Shown here: in pieces, positions 3,273-9,561 of the stretch
Position numbering within the stretch: the first letter of the stretch is position 1
How the letters are laid out: every line of letters starts with the position of its first letter
IMG/VR virus record: IMGVR_UViG_2541047595_000019
From: a virus
Taxonomy: Duplodnaviria > Heunggongvirae > Uroviricota > Caudoviricetes
Length of the DNA: 9,561 nucleotides
Reading direction: 5' to 3' (one strand)
Made by a program: the position numbers and the translations under genes
The notes under the pieces: generated by a model
Databases searched by the model: none
What the model saw: only the letters and a program-made list of their open reading frames with translations
Told to the model about the DNA's origin: nothing

Positions 3273-5462
3273 ATGAGCGAGCAAGTCGGAAGCCTTCAGA
3301 TAGAGATTGACCTGAAGACAAAAAATTTACTGGTATCACAACGCCATGCTGAAAACGCGCTGGATGATATTGGCAATAAGATTGGCGGCGCAGAGCGACA
3401 AGCAGCAAAACTTAACACGCAGCTAACAAAAACATCGCGCGCTATTAGCGGCAATCTGCGTGCCGGATTCCAGCAGGCTGGATACCAGATTCAGGACTTC
3501 GTGGTGCAGGTCCAGTCAGGACAAAGCGCACTGATAGCGTTGTCACAGCAAGGCAGCCAGTTATTGAGTGCCTTCGGTGGCTGGGGTATTGCACTTGGTG
3601 CGGCGCTTACAGTTGGTGTATCGCTGTTTAAAGCCCTGACAGGTGAAACCGAGGAGACAACAGACAAGACCGAAGTATTTGAAAAGGCTTGCAGTAATTT
3701 ACGCCAGGTAATGGCCCTGAACGAGCAAGGCGTAAACGTCCTGTCAAACGAATACGCCAACCTCGCGAAACAGTCAGCCGAGGCCGCTGCGATGGTCGAA
3801 CGACATTTAACACTGAAACTACGCGAAGCCAAATCAGCGATGAGTGTCTATATCACCAATACACTGGACGCCCAAAACGCGACTGCGGGTTTTGGGATGA
3901 TTGGATCTGACAGTTTACTCGACATGATGCAGGCGATGCGTGCGCTGGGCGTTGAAACGTATGATTACGCCGACGCAATGGACCAGTTGAACGACATGGG
4001 CCTACGTGGTGCGCAGATCCATAAAGAGCTAAACCGCGAACTTGATGATATGGCAGATAAAACTGGCGTATCAAAAGAAGCGCTCTTTGATATGTGCCAG
4101 GAATTAATGGCGGTCGCTAAAGCGCCGACAGCGGACAGCATTTCAGCACTATCAAACCGCATTGCCAGCATGAACCCTACGACAGCGGAAGGTGTTGGCC
4201 TGTTTAATGAACTACAGCAGGCATTGATTAAAGCCGCTATTGAGCTTCAACAGTTCGGGGATATTAGCGAAGATACCGCCAATAAACTTGATGTATTAAA
4301 TCACGCGGCGGATTCTCAATGGGTGAAAGACTTTACAGAAAACATAAAGATGCAAACAAAGGCATTGGGAGCTTCACGCGGCGAAATCATGCGGTTACAG
4401 CTTGAGAATAAGAACCTTACAGTAGAAGAACGCGCCAATGCTGAACAGGCAATCAAGAATTACGAAGATAAACAAAATCGACTTGAACAAGAGAAAGAAG
4501 CGAAACGCCAGGCACTGGCAGCAGAACGCGCCGCCACCGCAGAACGCAAACGCCTGATGCGTGAAGAAGAGCAGGAGCGGAAACGCATTGAGCGTGAGAA
4601 AGAACAGCGCGAGCGCCAGACAAAACAAGCGAAACGCTTCACTGACCAGATCGAAACCAACTATCTGACAACCGTCAATCCGGCGACAGGTCAGGCAGAA
4701 AATCCGCTGGCAGCAATTCAGGCGCAACAGCAACGTGAATTCGAAATGCTGGAAATGTATCGCCAGCAGAATTTAGTCAGTGAGCAGCAATACCGTAACG
4801 CCCTGGAAAACATTATTAACACGTCAGCCATGCGCGTAGCAGCCATCGAGCAACAACAGGCGAGCGAATACAGTAAGAACATTCAGGGATTGATGAGCGC
4901 ATATAGCGGCATGTTTGGCGAGCTTGCTGGCGTTATTTCTGATGGTGCGGGCGAGCAGAGTGCAGCATATCGTGCGATGTTTGCAGTACAGAAAGGTTTT
5001 GCAATGGCATCCGCAGCATTGAGCCTTCAGGAGTCACTAGCGAAGGCTAACTCGCTCCCATTCCCGGCTAATATTCCGGCCTATGCGCAAGCATTAACAG
5101 CAGGTACGCAGATCATTTCAGCCATTCGCGGCATAGCTTTTGGTGGCGGTCGCTACAACGGAGGGGTGGTTGATTCGGGTAAATTCTATCGTGTCGGTGA
5201 GTCCAACAAGCCTGAGCTGTTTCAATCCGGTGGGCGACAGTACATGATTCCTGGTGAGGGCGGCAGGATTATCCCCAACCGCGATATTGGTGGCAGTGGT
5301 GGCGGCATCACACTGAACGTAACAAACAACATCCAGGCGACAAACGGCTGGACTGAAGACGACTCAAAAGCGTTGCAACAGACTATAGAAAACACAGCAA
5401 TGCGCCTGATGCAGCGCGAGTCGCAAAGACCTGGAGGCATGTTACAACCACGGCGGCGTTAA
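3273..5462 (+). CDS. Phage tail tape measure protein, lambda gpH-like, 729 aa
   Basis: AAGAGG Shine-Dalgarno before ATG 3273. The N-terminus (MSEQVGSLQIEIDL ... QVQSGQSALIALSQQGSQLLSAFGGWGIALGAAL) parallels lambda gpH (MAEPVGDLVVDL ... QLAGGQSPWLILLQQGGQVKDSFGG). The C-terminus is glycine-rich (AFGGGRYNGGVVDSGKFYRVGESNKPELF ... GGSGGG) like the lambda tape measure C-terminal domain. The centre is a long helical, highly charged ruler-like region. Confidence 0.85.
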   Translation: MSEQVGSLQIEIDLKTKNLLVSQRHAENALDDIGNKIGGAERQAAKLNTQLTKTSRAISGNLRAGFQQAGYQIQDFVVQVQSGQSALIALSQQGSQLLSAFGGWGIALGAALTVGVSLFKALTGETEETTDKTEVFEKACSNLRQVMALNEQGVNVLSNEYANLAKQSAEAAAMVERHLTLKLREAKSAMSVYITNTLDAQNATAGFGMIGSDSLLDMMQAMRALGVETYDYADAMDQLNDMGLRGAQIHKELNRELDDMADKTGVSKEALFDMCQELMAVAKAPTADSISALSNRIASMNPTTAEGVGLFNELQQALIKAAIELQQFGDISEDTANKLDVLNHAADSQWVKDFTENIKMQTKALGASRGEIMRLQLENKNLTVEERANAEQAIKNYEDKQNRLEQEKEAKRQALAAERAATAERKRLMREEEQERKRIEREKEQRERQTKQAKRFTDQIETNYLTTVNPATGQAENPLAAIQAQQQREFEMLEMYRQQNLVSEQQYRNALENIINTSAMRVAAIEQQQASEYSKNIQGLMSAYSGMFGELAGVISDGAGEQSAAYRAMFAVQKGFAMASAALSLQESLAKANSLPFPANIPAYAQALTAGTQIISAIRGIAFGGGRYNGGVVDSGKFYRVGESNKPELFQSGGRQYMIPGEGGRIIPNRDIGGSGGGITLNVTNNIQATNGWTEDDSKALQQTIENTAMRLMQRESQRPGGMLQPRRR

Positions 5463-5466
5463 CCAA

Positions 5467-5631
5467 ATCCCACGCCAGGGGGATAGACTGGCGGACCCTT
5501 CCCGGTTCTATGCGAAAAATCCCTCACAATTACCCTGCTAATTTGCCAGATTTCACGTACACACGCCAAACAAAAGCCCAGGCAGTTAGCAACCTACCCA
5601 GGCCTTTCTCACAATCCCCGCCGATATTATA
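5467..5631. repeat. Direct repeat copy A (~165 bp), immediately after the tape measure stop codon
   Basis: Near-identical to 8341-8551. The core ATAGACTGGCGGACCCTTCCCG...GAAAAATCCCTCACAATTACCCTGC.AATTTGCCAGATTTCACGTACAC.CGCC ... AGTTAGCAACCTACCCAGGCCTTTCTCACAATC.CCCGCCGATATTATA matches with a handful of substitutions, offset exactly 2880 bp. Confidence 0.85.
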
Positions 5632-5672
5632 ACCGCCATTCCCTGGTTTTATCATTTGTTGCCCAGCCTGCC

Positions 5673-5686
5673 ATTTGTAGACAAAT
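5673..5686. promoter_or_regulatory. Operator-like perfect palindrome ATTTGT-AG-ACAAAT
   Basis: 6-bp inverted arms around a 2-bp centre, about 90 bp upstream of the candidate promoter for the 5810 gene. CATTTGT is also present at 5653-5659. Confidence 0.3.
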
Positions 5687-5774
5687 CCCATCACACATAA
5701 ATCATCAACCAATAAATTGACCTAAATCATTTTATCAGTCGCTTAACCAGGTGTATTTTGTAGTCAAACAAGGG

Positions 5775-5801
5775 TTGACAAGGTTTAGCAACAAATATGA
5801 G
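5775..5801 (+). promoter_or_regulatory. Candidate promoter: TTGACA (5775-5780) and TATGAG (5796-5801) ahead of ATG 5810
   Basis: Consensus -35 hexamer. The -10-like hexamer is 15 bp downstream, which is a short spacer, and overlaps the GAGGTG Shine-Dalgarno. Confidence 0.3.
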
Positions 5802-5809
5802 GTGAAATC

Positions 5810-5998
5810 ATGAAACACGATAGAGCGGAAATTATCTTCGATATGGTGCGTGAAAGAGTGTGCGCTATGGATACTAAGATTGCACTGATAAGAGCGGGCG
5901 TGCCAGCAACTGCACAAGAACTACTGGTACTAATAGAAAGGCGTGAATACGAGCTAAGCAAAGCCAAAAGAGCATTTGCATTAATATACGCAAAATAA
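5810..5998 (+). CDS. Hypothetical small protein, 62 aa
   Basis: ATG 5810 preceded by GAGGTGAAATC. By eye it uses codons that are rare in enterobacteria (AGA, ATA, CTA), suggesting foreign origin. No family recognised. Confidence 0.55.
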   Translation: MKHDRAEIIFDMVRERVCAMDTKIALIRAGVPATAQELLVLIERREYELSKAKRAFALIYAK

Positions 5999-6017
5999 AC
6001 ACACGGGAGATTAAACA

Positions 6018-6248
6018 ATGGATAAAAATGAAGTAATCCTTCTTAGCCGCCCTGCCATTTGCCGGATGCTGGGCGGAATTAGCAGAGGCACGTTTTATTC
6101 GTGGCGTAAGAAATGGGAACAGAACGGAACTCCATTCCCCGACCCTGTTGATGTGCTGGGTACAGGGCGGGGTGTCATGTATCGCTATCAGGATGTGATG
6201 AAGTTCTTTAAATCGATTGGACTACTTTCTGACAGCGATAACCAGTAA
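6018..6248 (+). CDS. Third AlpA/excisionase-like HTH protein, 76 aa
   Basis: GGGAG Shine-Dalgarno 8 nt before ATG 6018. Translation LLSRPAICRMLGGISRGTFYSWRKK ... FPDPVDVLGTGRGVMYRYQDVMKFF fits the AlpA/Xis HTH-wing pattern. Confidence 0.6.
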   Translation: MDKNEVILLSRPAICRMLGGISRGTFYSWRKKWEQNGTPFPDPVDVLGTGRGVMYRYQDVMKFFKSIGLLSDSDNQ

Positions 6249-6265
6249 TCATCTAACTTGCTAAT

Positions 6266-6288
6266 ACCCGGCCCCGCGCCGGGTTTTT
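6266..6288 (+). terminator. Rho-independent terminator (CCCGGC-CCCGC-GCCGGG followed by TTTTT)
   Basis: 6-bp GC stem, 5-nt loop and a T5 run, 18 nt after the stop at 6246-6248. The 22-nt core is identical to 7861-7882. Confidence 0.7.
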
Positions 6289-6384
6289 GATCCCTGTCAA
6301 CTTCCCCATCAAAGCGGCTACCATCACCCGCTTTTTGTTGATAAATTAGAAAGCAAAACGTTTAGCGACAAAATGAGGTAATGT

Positions 6385-7068
6385 ATGGAATACATGGATT
6401 GGGTTGAGTTAGGCATGAACAAGCGCGCTCGCAAGATGACGCGGCAAGATGTCGCTGAGGCAATGGGCTTCAAAGGCAAAGGCGCTGCTAGCCACAAGTT
6501 TAAAGGGCGTCGCGATACAACAAACAAGACCGCTGATGATGTGTTTAAAATGCTCGCCGCAGTCGGTTGGCAAGCTGTCATCTTCGATAGCAACGGGAAG
6601 ATCGTAATGGGTACGGCACACGTTGATAGCCCGGACGGCATGGAACAAAAATTTATCAAGCGTTGCGAAGAACTAGCCAGAGAAAACGAGGCGCTAAAGG
6701 CTGAGATTGATATGTTGAAAAACCAGCTAAACAACAAAATCGATATTGTAGACAAACCAGTTAATCAACAAATCGAGACCAAGGGCGACGCTATTGTAGG
6801 AGAACCAGCTAAACAACAAAAAGCGGCGGGCGGACGTCCGGCAAAATTCAAAGTAGAACAGCTTGAGCAATGGCTTAAGGAGCAAGGCGGATACAAGGGG
6901 ACTATCGACGATTTGGCGTTATATGCGTTCGGTAAGATCGGCAAAGATGGCAAGCTGCATGGCGCACCAGGCCGCCACTGGATGTACAAGGCGTTAGCTA
7001 AACTGGAGGACGAGGGGAAAATTGCCAAAGAGGCAGCGACAAGGAGCGGGATTAATATTGTTGCTTAA
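6385..7068 (+). CDS. Putative DNA-binding regulator, 227 aa (HTH-like N-terminus, central coiled coil, basic C-terminal domain)
   Basis: TGAGGT Shine-Dalgarno 6 nt before ATG 6385. The N-terminus MTRQDVAEAMGFKG...DDVFKML looks like a Cro/CI-type HTH. EELARENEALKAEIDMLKNQL is a heptad-like coiled coil. Family not confidently recognised. Confidence 0.65.
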   Translation: MEYMDWVELGMNKRARKMTRQDVAEAMGFKGKGAASHKFKGRRDTTNKTADDVFKMLAAVGWQAVIFDSNGKIVMGTAHVDSPDGMEQKFIKRCEELARENEALKAEIDMLKNQLNNKIDIVDKPVNQQIETKGDAIVGEPAKQQKAAGGRPAKFKVEQLEQWLKEQGGYKGTIDDLALYAFGKIGKDGKLHGAPGRHWMYKALAKLEDEGKIAKEAATRSGINIVA

Positions 7069-7112
7069 CCCTTAAAGCCAACGATTAGCTACAAAACCAG
7101 CCATCAAGCGAA

Positions 7113-7138
7113 GCCCAGCCATAGCGCTGGGTTTTTTT
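7113..7138 (+). terminator. Rho-independent terminator (CCCAGC-CATAGC-GCTGGG followed by TTTTTTT)
   Basis: GC stem plus a T7 run, about 45 nt after the stop at 7066-7068. Confidence 0.65.
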
Positions 7139-7177
7139 ATTGATATTCACAAGGCATTGTCGCGTCACAAAACAAAT

Positions 7178-7191
7178 TTGATACATATCAA
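7178..7191. promoter_or_regulatory. Operator-like perfect palindrome TTGATA-CA-TATCAA
   Basis: 6-bp inverted arms with a 2-bp centre, the same 6-2-6 architecture as the 5673-5686 palindrome. It lies in the intergenic region upstream of the 7303 gene. Confidence 0.3.
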
Positions 7192-7302
7192 TGATATTAA
7201 CGCAGCGTTTTGATAACCATTCAGTTAAGAATCGCAACAACTAAAGGAGGTGATAAAGGCTGGCGAGCCGTTGCCCTATGGCAGCAAAACGGGAGCAACA
7301 AC

Positions 7303-7854
7303 ATGTTTGACTTGGTACAGGTTGATAGCGAGTGGCGCATTAGTAGTCTTGAGTTGTTGGACTTGGTTAATCAGATTCGTGTGGCTGAAGGTCTTAACAA
7401 ACTGCCGCCGAACAGATTCAACAAGAAAATTAAAGACGAGCTTGAAGGTGAAAGTCTCTACTGGCATAAAATGCGCATTAATATAAATCAACAACTTACA
7501 AAAGAAGTTGAGATTTGTGAACTCACTGGAGACCAGGCTTTAAGAGTGGGGATGCGCGAATTTAAGCGTGTCAGGGCAAAAGTAGTAGAACGAATCAACC
7601 AATTGCGATTGGAGGTATCGCAGTACAAACTGATTCAACAATGCGCAGACAAGGCAGATCAGGCGGTAGCGTTAGCCAACGAAGGCAAGTTAAACGAAGT
7701 AGCGGATCTCATTGTGATAGCGAAACGCGAGTATCTACCGCTATCAAGCGCGGCAGGTAAAACGCTAAATAGGTGTAGACCGACGAAACGCAAACTGAAC
7801 CAGTCGGAAAACTATATTGGTAGTCTTCTTCAAATCGACTTGTTCCCTGAGTGA
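7303..7854 (+). CDS. Hypothetical protein, 183 aa from ATG 7303; possible phage regulatory (Rha/antirepressor-like) protein
   Basis: GGGAG Shine-Dalgarno 7 nt before ATG 7303. The track's 7210 start is TTG with no Shine-Dalgarno. The N-terminal WRISSLELLDLVNQIRVAEGLNKL is reminiscent of Rha-type phage regulators, but the match is weak. Confidence 0.55.
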   Translation: MFDLVQVDSEWRISSLELLDLVNQIRVAEGLNKLPPNRFNKKIKDELEGESLYWHKMRININQQLTKEVEICELTGDQALRVGMREFKRVRAKVVERINQLRLEVSQYKLIQQCADKADQAVALANEGKLNEVADLIVIAKREYLPLSSAAGKTLNRCRPTKRKLNQSENYIGSLLQIDLFPE

Positions 7855-7860
7855 TAGTTC

Positions 7861-7882
7861 ACCCGGCCCCGCGCCGGGTTTT
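7861..7882 (+). terminator. Rho-independent terminator, identical core to 6266-6287 (ACCCGGCCCCGCGCCGGGTTTT)
   Basis: Same stem-loop followed by TTTT, 7 nt after the stop at 7852-7854. Confidence 0.7.
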
Positions 7883-8100
7883 AATGCCATCATTATTAAA
7901 TCTATTAATGCTCATTAAACCATAATTAGCATAACTTATAATCGAACAAAAATCACACAAATCAGATAATGATTTTTTCTGGTTATACTTATCTAAAAAA
8001 GTGGTATAGGATGTAACTTATTATTTTGTAAGGGCAAATTTATTGCGTGGCCAGATGAACAGGCTTGCGCACCTCCCGAAAAACACGCGAAAATCTAAGT

Positions 8101-8210
8101 GTTCTTTCTTTTTTTGTTTTTATTTTTTCATTTTCTCTTTCTTCTCTTTTCCGGTTTCTCTTCTTTCTGGTTTTGGTTTTTTCCTTTTTATTTTTATTCT
8201 TTCTTACCGT
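8101..8210. repeat. Low-complexity polypyrimidine (T/C) tract, ~110 nt
   Basis: By manual count about 96 of 110 bases are T or C, with roughly 5 A and 9 G. There is no regular periodicity. It sits in an AT-rich non-coding spacer (7883-8340). Confidence 0.8.
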
Positions 8211-8340
8211 TGGGGTAAAAACACCAAAACATTTTCGCCACAAAAGCATTAATTTCATCCTGCCAGACCAATCATTTTCACCGGATACACAGCCGGATAT
8301 AATCTCACTAACACCACACCACCCCGCACCACACCTGATA

Positions 8341-8551
8341 AATCCCGTATTCAGGAAGGGGAATAGACTGGCGGACCCTTCCCGCTTCTACATGAAAAAT
8401 CCCTCACAATTACCCTGCCAATTTGCCAGATTTCACGTACACGCGCCTATATCCCCGCTACCGGATACGCGCCGCTTATACCGGATAAACAAAGGCCCAG
8501 GTAGTTAGCAACCTACCCAGGCCTTTCTCACAATCACCCGCCGATATTATA
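8341..8551. repeat. Direct repeat copy B (~210 bp), carrying a 39-bp insertion (8448-8486) relative to copy A
   Basis: Aligns with 5467-5631. The insertion TATATCCCCGCTACCGGATACGCGCCGCTTATACCGGAT contains two CCGGATA motifs. Confidence 0.85.
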
Positions 8552-8670
8552 TCACCCACCCTGCCGTTTTCAGGCGGGAGGTGAATAGCCGTCACTTGTT
8601 GCATAATTGATTAATTTCCGACCAATTAAATTAACTCCCACCAATACACGCTAGATGGGAGGTGGATTTT

Positions 8671-8742
8671 GTGACGCAGATCACTTTCTCTATTCCTGCA
8701 TTTTTGTTTAATTCAATCAACGGAAGGCAACTCCCAGGCTGA
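8671..8742 (+). CDS. Mini-ORF, 23 aa (GTG start; TQITFSIPAFLFNSINGRQLPG), speculative
   Basis: GGGAGGTG Shine-Dalgarno 6 nt before GTG 8671. The upstream motif TAGATGGGAGGTG (8652-8664) is repeated exactly at 8748-8760. Confidence 0.2.
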   Translation: MTQITFSIPAFLFNSINGRQLPG

Positions 8743-8765
8743 AAGGATAGATGGGAGGTGAAATC

Positions 8766-8828
8766 ATGAAGCGGTGGGAAGTGATTTTACTGATGGTGAT
8801 GATGTTTGTTATGTGCGTGGAGTATTAA
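8766..8828 (+). CDS. Mini-ORF encoding a 20-aa hydrophobic peptide (MKRWEVILLMVMMFVMCVEY)
   Basis: GGGAGGTG Shine-Dalgarno 5 nt before ATG 8766. The stop at 8826-8828 overlaps the Shine-Dalgarno of the next gene. Composition resembles small membrane toxin or leader peptides. Confidence 0.3.
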   Translation: MKRWEVILLMVMMFVMCVEY

Positions 8829-8839
8829 GGGGGGCAATT

Positions 8840-9019
8840 ATGGAACGCTTTATCAATAAACTACTGATTGTTGTTATCGCAATAGCGATCTTCGTATGGG
8901 TGGGCGTGCTGTTTAGCCAGTTTCCTGATGCTATGCGGTTAATTCAGATCGAGGGACAACGCGCTTTTATCCCTGGCTGGCGCGTGATTTACGAATTAAT
9001 CCGCTGGTTTGCAGCTTGA
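8840..9019 (+). CDS. Small membrane protein, 59 aa, one predicted transmembrane helix
   Basis: TAAGGGGGGCA Shine-Dalgarno context before ATG 8840 (the track starts at an upstream GTG). The hydrophobic helix is LLIVVIAIAIFVWVGVLF. Confidence 0.5.
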   Translation: MERFINKLLIVVIAIAIFVWVGVLFSQFPDAMRLIQIEGQRAFIPGWRVIYELIRWFAA

Positions 9020-9033
9020 ATAAGGGGGGCACT

Positions 9034-9561
9034 ATGAACAGAGAAAAGACATTCCCGGAAATGCTGGAAGAGGCAGCGATTAACAGCCTGGCTATTGCAG
9101 ACACTAAGGAATTAATGACGTTCACCAAGCGCCAGATAACCGCAATTATGCAGATGCCGAGTATTAGCGAGGAACCTGCGACGGCACACGCTATGGCTAT
9201 CCATACGCTCACAATGGCGACTTACCTTTGGTTGTATAGCGACTTCGGGTTGCAGCCAGTCGATGCAGACGATCGCGAGTTATTCGCTGTGGATGTTGAC
9301 GACGTACACGCCGTACTGATGCCGCTAAATGTTCTGGTTGGCTGGATTTACCACAATAGCGTCGAGGCGGTTTGCAGGGCGAAAGCGGGAAATCCTGGTG
9401 GAACTGACTGGCGGTTACTGTTCCGGCAAATGACTTTAGAGCAGTTCATCGACGACAAATATGGACTATCACACGACATTGCTGATGCTCTTTACGAAGC
9501 AATGAAAGAAGGCGCAACAGCCGCGCTAAATGGCAACCTGGCAGCACCGACTATTCACTGA
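9034..9561 (+). CDS. Hypothetical protein, 175 aa
   Basis: ATG 9034 preceded by the same TAAGGGGGGCA context 5 nt upstream. The ORF ends with TGA at the window edge. No family recognised. Confidence 0.6.
   Translation: MNREKTFPEMLEEAAINSLAIADTKELMTFTKRQITAIMQMPSISEEPATAHAMAIHTLTMATYLWLYSDFGLQPVDADDRELFAVDVDDVHAVLMPLNVLVGWIYHNSVEAVCRAKAGNPGGTDWRLLFRQMTLEQFIDDKYGLSHDIADALYEAMKEGATAALNGNLAAPTIH

Follow-up and report, generated by a model that had tools for sequence, protein, structure and literature searches.

We analysed a stretch of 9,561 nucleotides (nt), hereafter the window, from the IMG/VR virus record IMGVR_UViG_2541047595_000019 (Caudoviricetes), with emphasis on a cassette of four genes, g1 to g4, that follows a gene for a tape-measure protein (TMP). 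The coordinates of the features are collected in Table 1. An earlier note, made from the letters alone, had claimed four genes between positions 5810 and 7854, and all four open reading frames (ORFs) are borne out. The ratio of nonsynonymous to synonymous substitution (dN/dS) against relatives lies between 0.09 and 0.52 for the four genes; therefore, we regard them as genuine and under purifying selection.

The same note had described two identical 22-nt terminators and placed a third at 7113-7138. The 22-mer ACCCGGCCCCGCGCCGGGTTTT occurs exactly twice in the window, with no match in 200 shuffles even when 3 mismatches were allowed, and the third hairpin was found, its stem and T-run reaching slightly beyond the limits first given. 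T1, T2 and T3 have the features by which intrinsic terminators are predicted, namely a G+C-rich hairpin plus U-run, located on the coding strand shortly beyond a stop codon; the hairpin of g2 begins 18 nt past its stop codon, that of g3 42 nt and that of g4 7 nt, and in relatives the stems are kept while the loops vary. Terminator-like sites over the whole window are not above chance (13 versus 11.3 expected). The 22-mer was also considered as a unique signature of the element, and this was ruled out by the presence of a 21-mer of the hairpin, as a single copy, in more than 120 unrelated genomes; the 21-mer is a generic terminator shape. The cassette consists of three units, g1-g2, g3 and g4, each closed by a predicted intrinsic terminator.

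Table 1. Positions of the cassette genes, terminators, control elements and flanking features in the window
Feature	Positions	Strand	Description
Post-tape-measure intergenic region	5463-5809	+	Repeat copy 1 (5477-5640) plus operator/promoter-like stretch (5654-5796)
Palindrome	5673-5686		ATTTGTAGACAAAT (ATTTGT-AG-ACAAAT), perfect 6-2-6
Related second site	5757-5768		TTTGTAGTCAAA; kept, as is 5673-5686, in L001-L003
12-mer	5784-5795	+	TTTAGCAACAAA; about 15 nt before g1 start
g1	5810-5998	+	62 aa, no family match, dN/dS 0.09-0.13, E. coli only
g2	6018-6248	+	76-aa AlpA/Xis-type winged helix-turn-helix protein; dN/dS 0.26
T1	6266-6287	+	ACCCGGCCCCGCGCCGGGTTTT; 7-bp G+C stem then U-run, -13.3 kcal/mol
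Twin 12-mer	6361-6372	+	TTTAGCGACAAA; before g3 start; conserved in g3 alleles of 227-252 aa
g3	6385-7068	+	227-aa YffS-family protein
27-nt repeats in g3	6713-6739, 6747-6773, 6795-6821	+	Three DNA repeats in linker-coding DNA
T2	7110-7141	+	10-bp stem (7110-7135) then T7 run to 7141; -18.4 kcal/mol, z = -4.5
Intergenic region before g4	7142-7302	+	Palindrome TTGATACATATCAA (TTGATA-CA-TATCAA) at 7178-7191; four TTGATA half-sites
g4	7303-7854	+	183-aa optional gene; N-terminal alpha/beta domain plus long coiled coil
T3	7861-7882	+	Identical to T1; -13.4 to -13.7 kcal/mol
Optional segment	7883-8263		380 nt; AT-rich half plus polypyrimidine run of about 110 nt (8100-8210)
Fossil CPZ-55-type attachment right arm	8264-8358	+	Ends in 8-bp core TCAGGAAG (8351-8358)
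Repeat copy 2	8357-8560	+	Post-tape-measure region fused to attachment core; heads second cassette (8765-9561 and beyond)

The intergenic DNA of the cassette is strongly conserved. The stretch from the TMP stop codon to the first cassette gene is kept in the relatives L001, L002 and L003 regardless of which gene comes next, and the region before g4 is common to L003 up to position 7255, after which L003 has a different gene. The leader of g4 is 96-100% identical to that of L002 in 50-nt bins, even though g4 itself has a synonymous divergence (dS) of 2.15. Both of the 6-2-6 palindromes reported earlier are perfect and are conserved in the relatives examined. Four such palindromes occur in the window, three of them intergenic, versus 2.0 +/- 1.3 expected, and we have dropped the idea that they are significant on their own; their weight lies in location and conservation, not rarity. 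The 12-mer TTTAGCRACAAA has only two copies in the window, one ahead of g1 and one ahead of g3, at a distance of 15-25 nt from the start codon. A plus-strand scan for sigma-70 promoters gave one candidate, weak (9/12), at 5678-5705 ahead of g1, where it overlaps the palindrome. No operator was found near alpA, and RNA folding of the g4 leader (7142-7305) was no better than that of shuffles.

The window is 100% identical to positions 6729-16289 of an NCTC isolate (L008), where it forms part of an island between rssA, a patatin-family gene, and ychJ. Its left edge lies just 3' of a gene for a 388-aa integrase and its right edge is the stop codon of a gene of a second cassette, and the gene order of the L008 island is int, alpA, HNH, gp10-like, TMP, cassette. 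Related islands of about 12 kb sit beside intZ in the eutB/eutA interval of many strains; this is the site of CPZ-55 in K-12, which is listed as a cryptic prophage (PMC6379469). In TUM10008 (L022), a complete eut-site island comprises intZ, a Rep (HTH_36) gene, an AlpA-like helix-turn-helix (HTH) gene plus HNH, small genes, the TMP gene, g1, g2, g3 and attR; additional genes in some relatives are one like a small terminase (Sf6_terminase) and one like HK97 gp10. Matches to the window were found in 265 of 5426 complete genomes, and an identical TMP is encoded on many E. coli contigs.

A layout resembling phage-inducible chromosomal islands (PICIs) means int followed by alpA, an own replicon, a size of about 12 kb and a dedicated site (PMC6092414), with accessory genes located at the 3' end (PMC6092414; PMC11364771). 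The islands described here have int at one end followed by a co-directional alpA, a size of about 12 kb, within the 10-15 kb typical of PICIs, and a dedicated attachment (att) site. They also have a replication module with an iteron origin, their Rep being of the HTH_36 type and not a Pri-Rep protein. The eut-site copies carry the Rep gene; in L008, four direct iterons (ACGTGTGACATTTGGGA) at 18253-18370 come after a remnant of it and are followed by an A+T-rich stretch, and this region is likely the replication origin of the island. Three small AlpA/Xis-type HTH proteins are encoded in the island, two directly after the integrase (243-443 and 537-770) and the third, g2, at the far end. On balance, we think that the cassette is probably hosted by a CPZ-55-family, PICI-like satellite island of E. 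coli, in which it forms an exchangeable right-arm module. The cassette had no match in searches of phage or plasmid DNA, scans of IMG/VR for g3 and g4 gave none, and our search of the accessible literature for a tie between CPZ-55 or the eut site and satellites found no paper describing the family as a satellite.

The TMP gene next to the cassette (3273-5462) is an unusual cargo for a satellite-like island. It is hypervariable, with 39-93% identity and products of 726-788 aa among L001, L002, L003 and L023-L032; the island genes match three different Pfam TMP families and are 30-42% identical to siphophage TMPs.

The products of the cassette look like nucleic-acid-binding regulators or small helical partners as judged from sequence, and none has a recognisable enzymatic or effector domain. 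No housekeeping family, which would have refuted the reading of the earlier note, was found in the homology searches made, and word-indexed searches for g2, g3 and g4 returned only E. coli and Shigella proteins; the four genes are Escherichia-restricted and without a named family. Searches of the Protein Data Bank (PDB) by sequence with g2, g3, g4 and a g3-family profile gave nothing significant. For g1, no match was found in Pfam, PHROG, PADLOC or NCBIfam. The impression that g1 uses rare codons was correct: AGA, AGG, ATA and CTA make up 11 of its 62 codons (17.7%) versus 1-8% in other genes of the window.

There are two alleles of g2, of 76 and 78 aa, which are 58% identical. The protein passes the Pfam HTH_23 cutoff (28.9 bits versus 24.6) and matches the DNA-binding family phrog_4745 (3e-11), and the g2 family aligns in hhalign with the AlpA-like proteins of the island (85%, E 5.9e-6, 44 columns), a profile in which one member is over the Pfam Phage_AlpA threshold and another is named AlpA family by NCBI. 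Against the Pfam AlpA models, g2 has no match to Phage_AlpA (PF05930) and falls short of HTH_17 (PF12728; E 0.048, 14.4 bits, cutoff 27), and only sub-threshold matches were seen in NCBIfam and PADLOC. AlpA/Xis-like HTH protein, as g2 had been called, is therefore a fair label. It could be taken to mean that g2 is a recombination directionality factor for a CPZ-55-type integrase and that g1, g3 and g4 regulate it. A weak match to Xis_Gifsy_1 (0.0016) is consistent with such control of excision, as is the position of the cassette directly upstream of the P arm, core and int in the circular form. However, two AlpA-family genes are already present just after int, the same cassette occurs in an island at a different site whose integrase is only 31% identical, and the O157 islands do without g2. 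Moreover, in EcCIMP1, an E. coli PICI, the far-end AlpA-family gene (alpA_1) is dispensable for the island's own excision (PMC11773190). We therefore consider a role in excision improbable.

The g3 protein is predicted to comprise an XRE-type HTH (about aa 1-85), a leucine zipper (86-117), a repeat linker (118-148) and a conserved C-terminal winged-helix-like domain (149-227), which agrees with its earlier description as an HTH plus coiled-coil protein. HTH_3 (PF01381) has no match in the window protein itself; three of nine family members match it, the best at 1.3e-5, the NCBI name is XRE family regulator, and a PDB profile search gave a lambda-repressor-like protein (E 0.14); zipper hits were also obtained. 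Homologues of g3 are confined to Escherichia and Shigella, with 6 clusters among 1.8 billion representatives, each of them a close relative, and more distantly it is related to K-12 YffS (blastp 2e-7 to the L002 allele) and to the 205-aa protein of the second cassette. Neither g3 nor g1 and g4 gave anything in PADLOC or NCBIfam.

Alleles of g3 of 211, 227 and 242 aa differ by the number of linker repeats. The repetition is one of DNA and not of peptide, since copy 1, which is 89% identical to copy 3, is not read in the frame of copies 2 and 3; within copy 2 there is a sequence close to that of the upstream palindrome (ATTGTAGACAAA). Repeats of varying number inside the gene of a DNA-binding protein would fit a replication or partition module, in which g3 would be a lambda-O-like initiator or a centromere-binding protein with its sites in its own gene. 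Yet the family already has the Rep (HTH_36) gene and, in L008, the four-iteron origin, no AT-rich melting region follows the repeats, other members of the YffS family lack them, and hhalign of g3 against Rep (Rep260) found no relationship. We consider such a module very unlikely.

The optional gene, g4, is represented by 8 clusters, all of E. coli. Its AlphaFold2 (AF2) model has a mean predicted local distance difference test (pLDDT) score of 68, with 80-90 for residues 11-90, and when compared with BFVD the predicted structure resembles phage KilAC-antirepressor, KilA and Rha-family proteins (E 1e-5 to 6e-4). A weak match to the anti-repressor family phrog_1726 (E 0.0065) and a weak hint of similarity to the alternative 187-aa gene of L003 (E 0.036) were also seen. 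The fold of g4 may thus be Rha/antirepressor-like, as its earlier description had suggested, but the Pfam sequence models do not match it.

The earlier note had inferred an acquired module, had taken the identical terminators as a sign of modular assembly, and had asked whether the terminator recurs elsewhere in the genome. Across the family the hairpin does recur. A copy of CCCGGCCCCGCGCCGGG-Tn or of a close variant stands after each of six different genes: g2, the 114-aa gene of the second cassette (cassette B) and of L003, g4 and its 186- and 187-aa counterparts, the 205-aa YffS-like gene, K-12 yffR and K-12 yffS. In five independent comparisons, the joints between relatives lie at hairpins, and because CCCGGCCCCGCGCCGGG-Tn marks nearly every joint where relatives differ, we regard the cassette as acquired and its modular assembly as well supported. 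We prefer to read the identical terminators as punctuation and a recombination joint common to the family, not as the result of one recent duplication.

L003 shares only 6267-7255 with the window, and the shared block begins inside T1; relatives diverge directly after the U-run of T3. In O157:H7 (L004 3968-4576), which has no cassette, the TMP gene is followed by part of the repeat and then by the right end of the island, and the deletion joint, CGCGCCG (7 nt), is located inside T3. L022 and L023, in which g4 is missing, have a hybrid hairpin with the 5' flank of T2 and a T3-type 3' half. The trio g1-g2-g3 comes after the TMP gene in every sampled context, at three chromosomal sites, and the 78-aa allele of g2 is listed in 4391 blocks of the collection. 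The g4 unit is present in the window, L001, L002, L027 and L029 and absent from L022, L023, L028 and L032. The trio is a widespread core and g4 is an optional add-on.

Divergence is also distributed unevenly within the cassette. Comparison with L002 shows 92-100% identity in most bins of the post-TMP region and g1, at the 3' end of g2, in T1, upstream of g3, and through the C-terminal domain of g3, T2 and the whole g4 leader, versus 38-74% in the core of g2 and in the N-terminal HTH with zipper of g3 (38-56% over the N-terminal half of g3), and 54 to 86% in g4. This pattern bears on whether the cassette is a functionless remnant of a decayed prophage, with incidental terminators and palindromes, as the cataloguing of CPZ-55 as a cryptic prophage (PMC6379469) and the lack of an assigned function for all four proteins might suggest. 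All four genes are under purifying selection, however, their organisation is conserved in thousands of assemblies, the intergenic regions are more conserved than the coding DNA, and an intact integrase, the Rep gene and AlpA genes are all still present in the islands, with the iterons retained in L008. Decay appears extremely unlikely to us.

A variable set of genes at the end of a satellite could also be cargo for anti-phage defence, that is, an immune system in an end hot spot that protects the host from competing phages. PICIs do bear immune systems at their 5' or 3' ends (PMC11364771), the slot described here is hypervariable and is filled by other sets of genes in L003, K-12 and cassette B, its units end in terminators, and the codon usage of g1 is foreign. 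But searches of PADLOC-DB v2 gave no meaningful match, the best being mad1 for g2 (E 0.009, 14 bits) with none for g1, g3 and g4; HTH-type and coiled-coil proteins were found and no nuclease, NTPase, membrane or toxin domain; and the trio is conserved across most islands, not sporadic. Defence cargo is thus an unlikely explanation.

The sequence to the right of the cassette records how larger units were gained and lost. After T3 comes the optional segment, present in the window, L004 and L023 and absent from L001 and L022, for which no Rfam match at a permissive E-value and no credible ORF were found. Next is the fossil att arm, which matches the island end beside eutA in L001-L004; its core TCAGGAAG is the 8-bp target duplication published for CPZ-55 (PMC6379469). 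Repeat copy 1 is the normal post-TMP region, and copy 2, 92-94% identical to it, heads the second cassette (window 8359-9561, continuing to L008 17555), which has genes of 20, 59, 175, 114 and 205 aa and matches L003. This cassette is flanked on both sides by att arm plus core, the second copy (L008 17456-17555) being fused to a 5'-truncated rep that lacks about 48-57 N-terminal codons. It appears that the flanking repeats are a post-TMP region that was duplicated when the second cassette joined at the fossil CPZ-55-type core.

L011 represents the same island minus copy 2, cassette B and the second arm; its joint falls inside a 15-nt stretch that includes the core, and not inside the longer stretch of 29 nt over which the two arm copies are identical. 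Three right-hand partners, eutA, the post-TMP region and the interior of rep, join the same arm at the same point, and all resemble AGG(N)AAT; these joints therefore point to integrase-type crossover at secondary sites, with microhomology-mediated joining as a possible alternative. Gain and loss of the second cassette looks integrase-mediated and seems to involve the whole right arm. To judge from the match between L008 17550-19116 and the rep-ori region on the left side of L022, the rssA-ychJ island is a circular permutation of the eut-type island that lost intZ and gained a different integrase, one only 31% identical to IntZ.

Two further observations concern the post-TMP repeats and the second cassette. 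Each repeat encodes a 14-bp hairpin on the minus strand (5572-5607 and 8491-8526), stable only on that strand; over 5477-5640, folding gave z -2.59 for the minus strand and -0.21, no better than shuffles, for the plus strand. Among 7 variants the stem differs at four pairs, in each case through GC/GU or UG/UA exchanges that leave the pairing intact, a U-run follows, a conserved TATAAT lies about 20 nt upstream (5626-5631, 8546-8551), and the hairpin is also found in K-12 CPZ-55. It may represent either a leftward-transcribed RNA of about 50 nt or a terminator pointing the same way. In a distant-mode search against phages, the post-TMP region matched nothing and so is no recognisable cos site of a helper. 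The 20-codon ORF at 8765-8827 (MKRWEVILLMVMMFVMCVEY) is very hydrophobic and has a strong ribosome-binding site; it stands ahead of the cassette genes in L002 and L003 and is absent before g1.

By analogy with EcCIMP1, we lean towards the view that the cassette is a far-end regulatory module of a satellite island, one that acts on the island or on a helper phage or other elements. It would be expressed from its own conserved control regions, with repeated ATTTGT and TTGATA half-sites and the identical 12-mer ahead of g1 and g3. These regions, which may be the site of autoregulation, are far more conserved than g2, the N-terminal HTH of g3 and g4. Since they are nearly identical while those three diverge, the conserved g1 or the C-terminal domain of g3 would be what binds them, and the fast-diverging parts would be specificity determinants directed at varying targets beyond the island, of which a helper phage or other mobile elements are the most plausible, and on these the module would act in trans. 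The hairpin CCCGGCCCCGCGCCGGG-Tn, the predicted stop sign of the family, doubles as the short common sequence where relatives exchange, gain or lose units.

A number of results weigh against such a regulatory module, or against its setting in a satellite. The O157:H7 islands without the cassette indicate that it is not essential for chromosomal maintenance of the island. Canonical PICIs have no phage structural genes, and here a TMP homologue (729 aa) and an HK97 gp10-like gene are present; no phage or IMG/VR record with the cassette or its flanking DNA was found, and no helper phage is known. The half-sites, each with 5 copies in 717 nt of cassette intergenic DNA where about 0.5 were expected, were chosen post hoc and their enrichment is suggestive only, and the sigma-70 scan gave nothing convincing ahead of g3 and g4. 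At the protein level, the putative DNA-binding role of the C-terminal 80 residues of g3 depends on weak winged-helix hits, such as that to an Lrs14-like protein (E 0.26), and the AF2 model of g3 is poor (pLDDT 47) and unfit for structure search. For g4, Pfam Phage_pRha, ANT and KilAC gave no match at E up to 0.1, and PDB fold searches found nothing significant. Nevertheless, each of the rival explanations set out above is weaker than the far-end regulatory module.

A more elaborate proposal joins three parts: the right arm is a cassette that an integrase can capture, g3 is a two-headed DNA binder, and the whole belongs to a hitherto unrecognised family of TMP-encoding satellites that includes CPZ-55. 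Under capture, the unit made of post-TMP region, genes, att arm and core would be excised and inserted by a CPZ-55-type integrase at core-like secondary sites, and satellites would stack and trade sets of regulators in an integron-like manner; the predicted mini-circle joint would read P arm, TCAGGAAGG, GGAATAGACTGG. The conserved C-terminal head of g3 would sit on the island's own control sites, while the diversifying XRE head would read the helper phage. We offer this combination tentatively, as one that is unlikely to hold in all its parts.

CPZ-55 has been annotated for decades in K-12 as a "cryptic prophage" of unspecified nature. Its fuller relatives suggest a widespread, unstudied family of E. 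coli phage satellites, because they have an integrase, Rep with iterons, AlpA, packaging-related and tape-measure genes and a swappable cassette. If the cassette regulators do act on helper phages, they would add a new and highly variable layer of satellite-helper cross-talk. The hairpin joints together with the att-core joints would show concretely how modules are exchanged. If the regulators do not act on helpers, what we describe is ordinary mosaic evolution of a mobile island, well documented.

Within K-12 CPZ-55 itself, yffQ-yffR-yffS occupy the same slot next to eutA in the same island family, with the hairpin after yffR and yffS and with YffS as the distant relative of g3. However, YffQ and YffR are unrelated to g1 and g2, the TMP gene has been lost and there is no g4. 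Phage morons, reportedly described by Juhala et al. in 2000, are extra promoter-gene-terminator units in the late operons of lambdoid phages; HK97 gp15 and lambda bor and lom are examples. The cassette is like them in that its units are closed by intrinsic terminators, lie downstream of the TMP gene and are present or absent between otherwise collinear relatives, and in the deviant codon usage of g1. Its products, in contrast, are predicted to bind DNA and are not envelope or exclusion proteins, and the trio is near-constant in the family, not sporadic.

Phage P22 has the immI region, with mnt, arc and ant, and satellite P4 encodes epsilon, an antirepressor acting on the helper repressor. A small repressor-type cluster beside a possible antirepressor-type gene recalls both, although no sequence relationship was found and g1 and g3 were not ribbon-helix-helix proteins by the tests run. 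Stl of the Staphylococcus aureus pathogenicity islands (SaPIs) is a master repressor with many divergent alleles. Likewise, g3 is predicted to pair an XRE-type HTH with a second domain and has many divergent alleles, but it is co-directional and at the far end, whereas Stl lies beside int and is divergent from the early operon; in Gram-negative PICIs, activation is described as depending on AlpA, and Stl as lacking (PMC6092414).

The closest parallel, and the one on which we rest the case for helper control, is EcCIMP1. It has a second AlpA-family gene, the alpA_1 mentioned above, at the far end, an antirepressor in its map and a PerC-type regulator; an island-encoded putative excisionase is reported to support excision of the helper, and a further regulator of the island to silence Citrobacter rodentium virulence genes (PMC11773190). 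Like the islands described here, it is a satellite-type island of E. coli in which int and alpA are at the left and an additional AlpA-family gene is at the other end, and it encodes an antirepressor, the type of protein that g4 may resemble in fold. The two belong to unrelated island families with different integration sites and replication proteins, the comparison being by description and not by sequence, and here the genes are co-directional with the rest of the island and split by terminators. Among these systems, the cassette belongs with the mosaic accessory and regulatory modules of phage satellites and prophages, and it is built from families found only in Escherichia.

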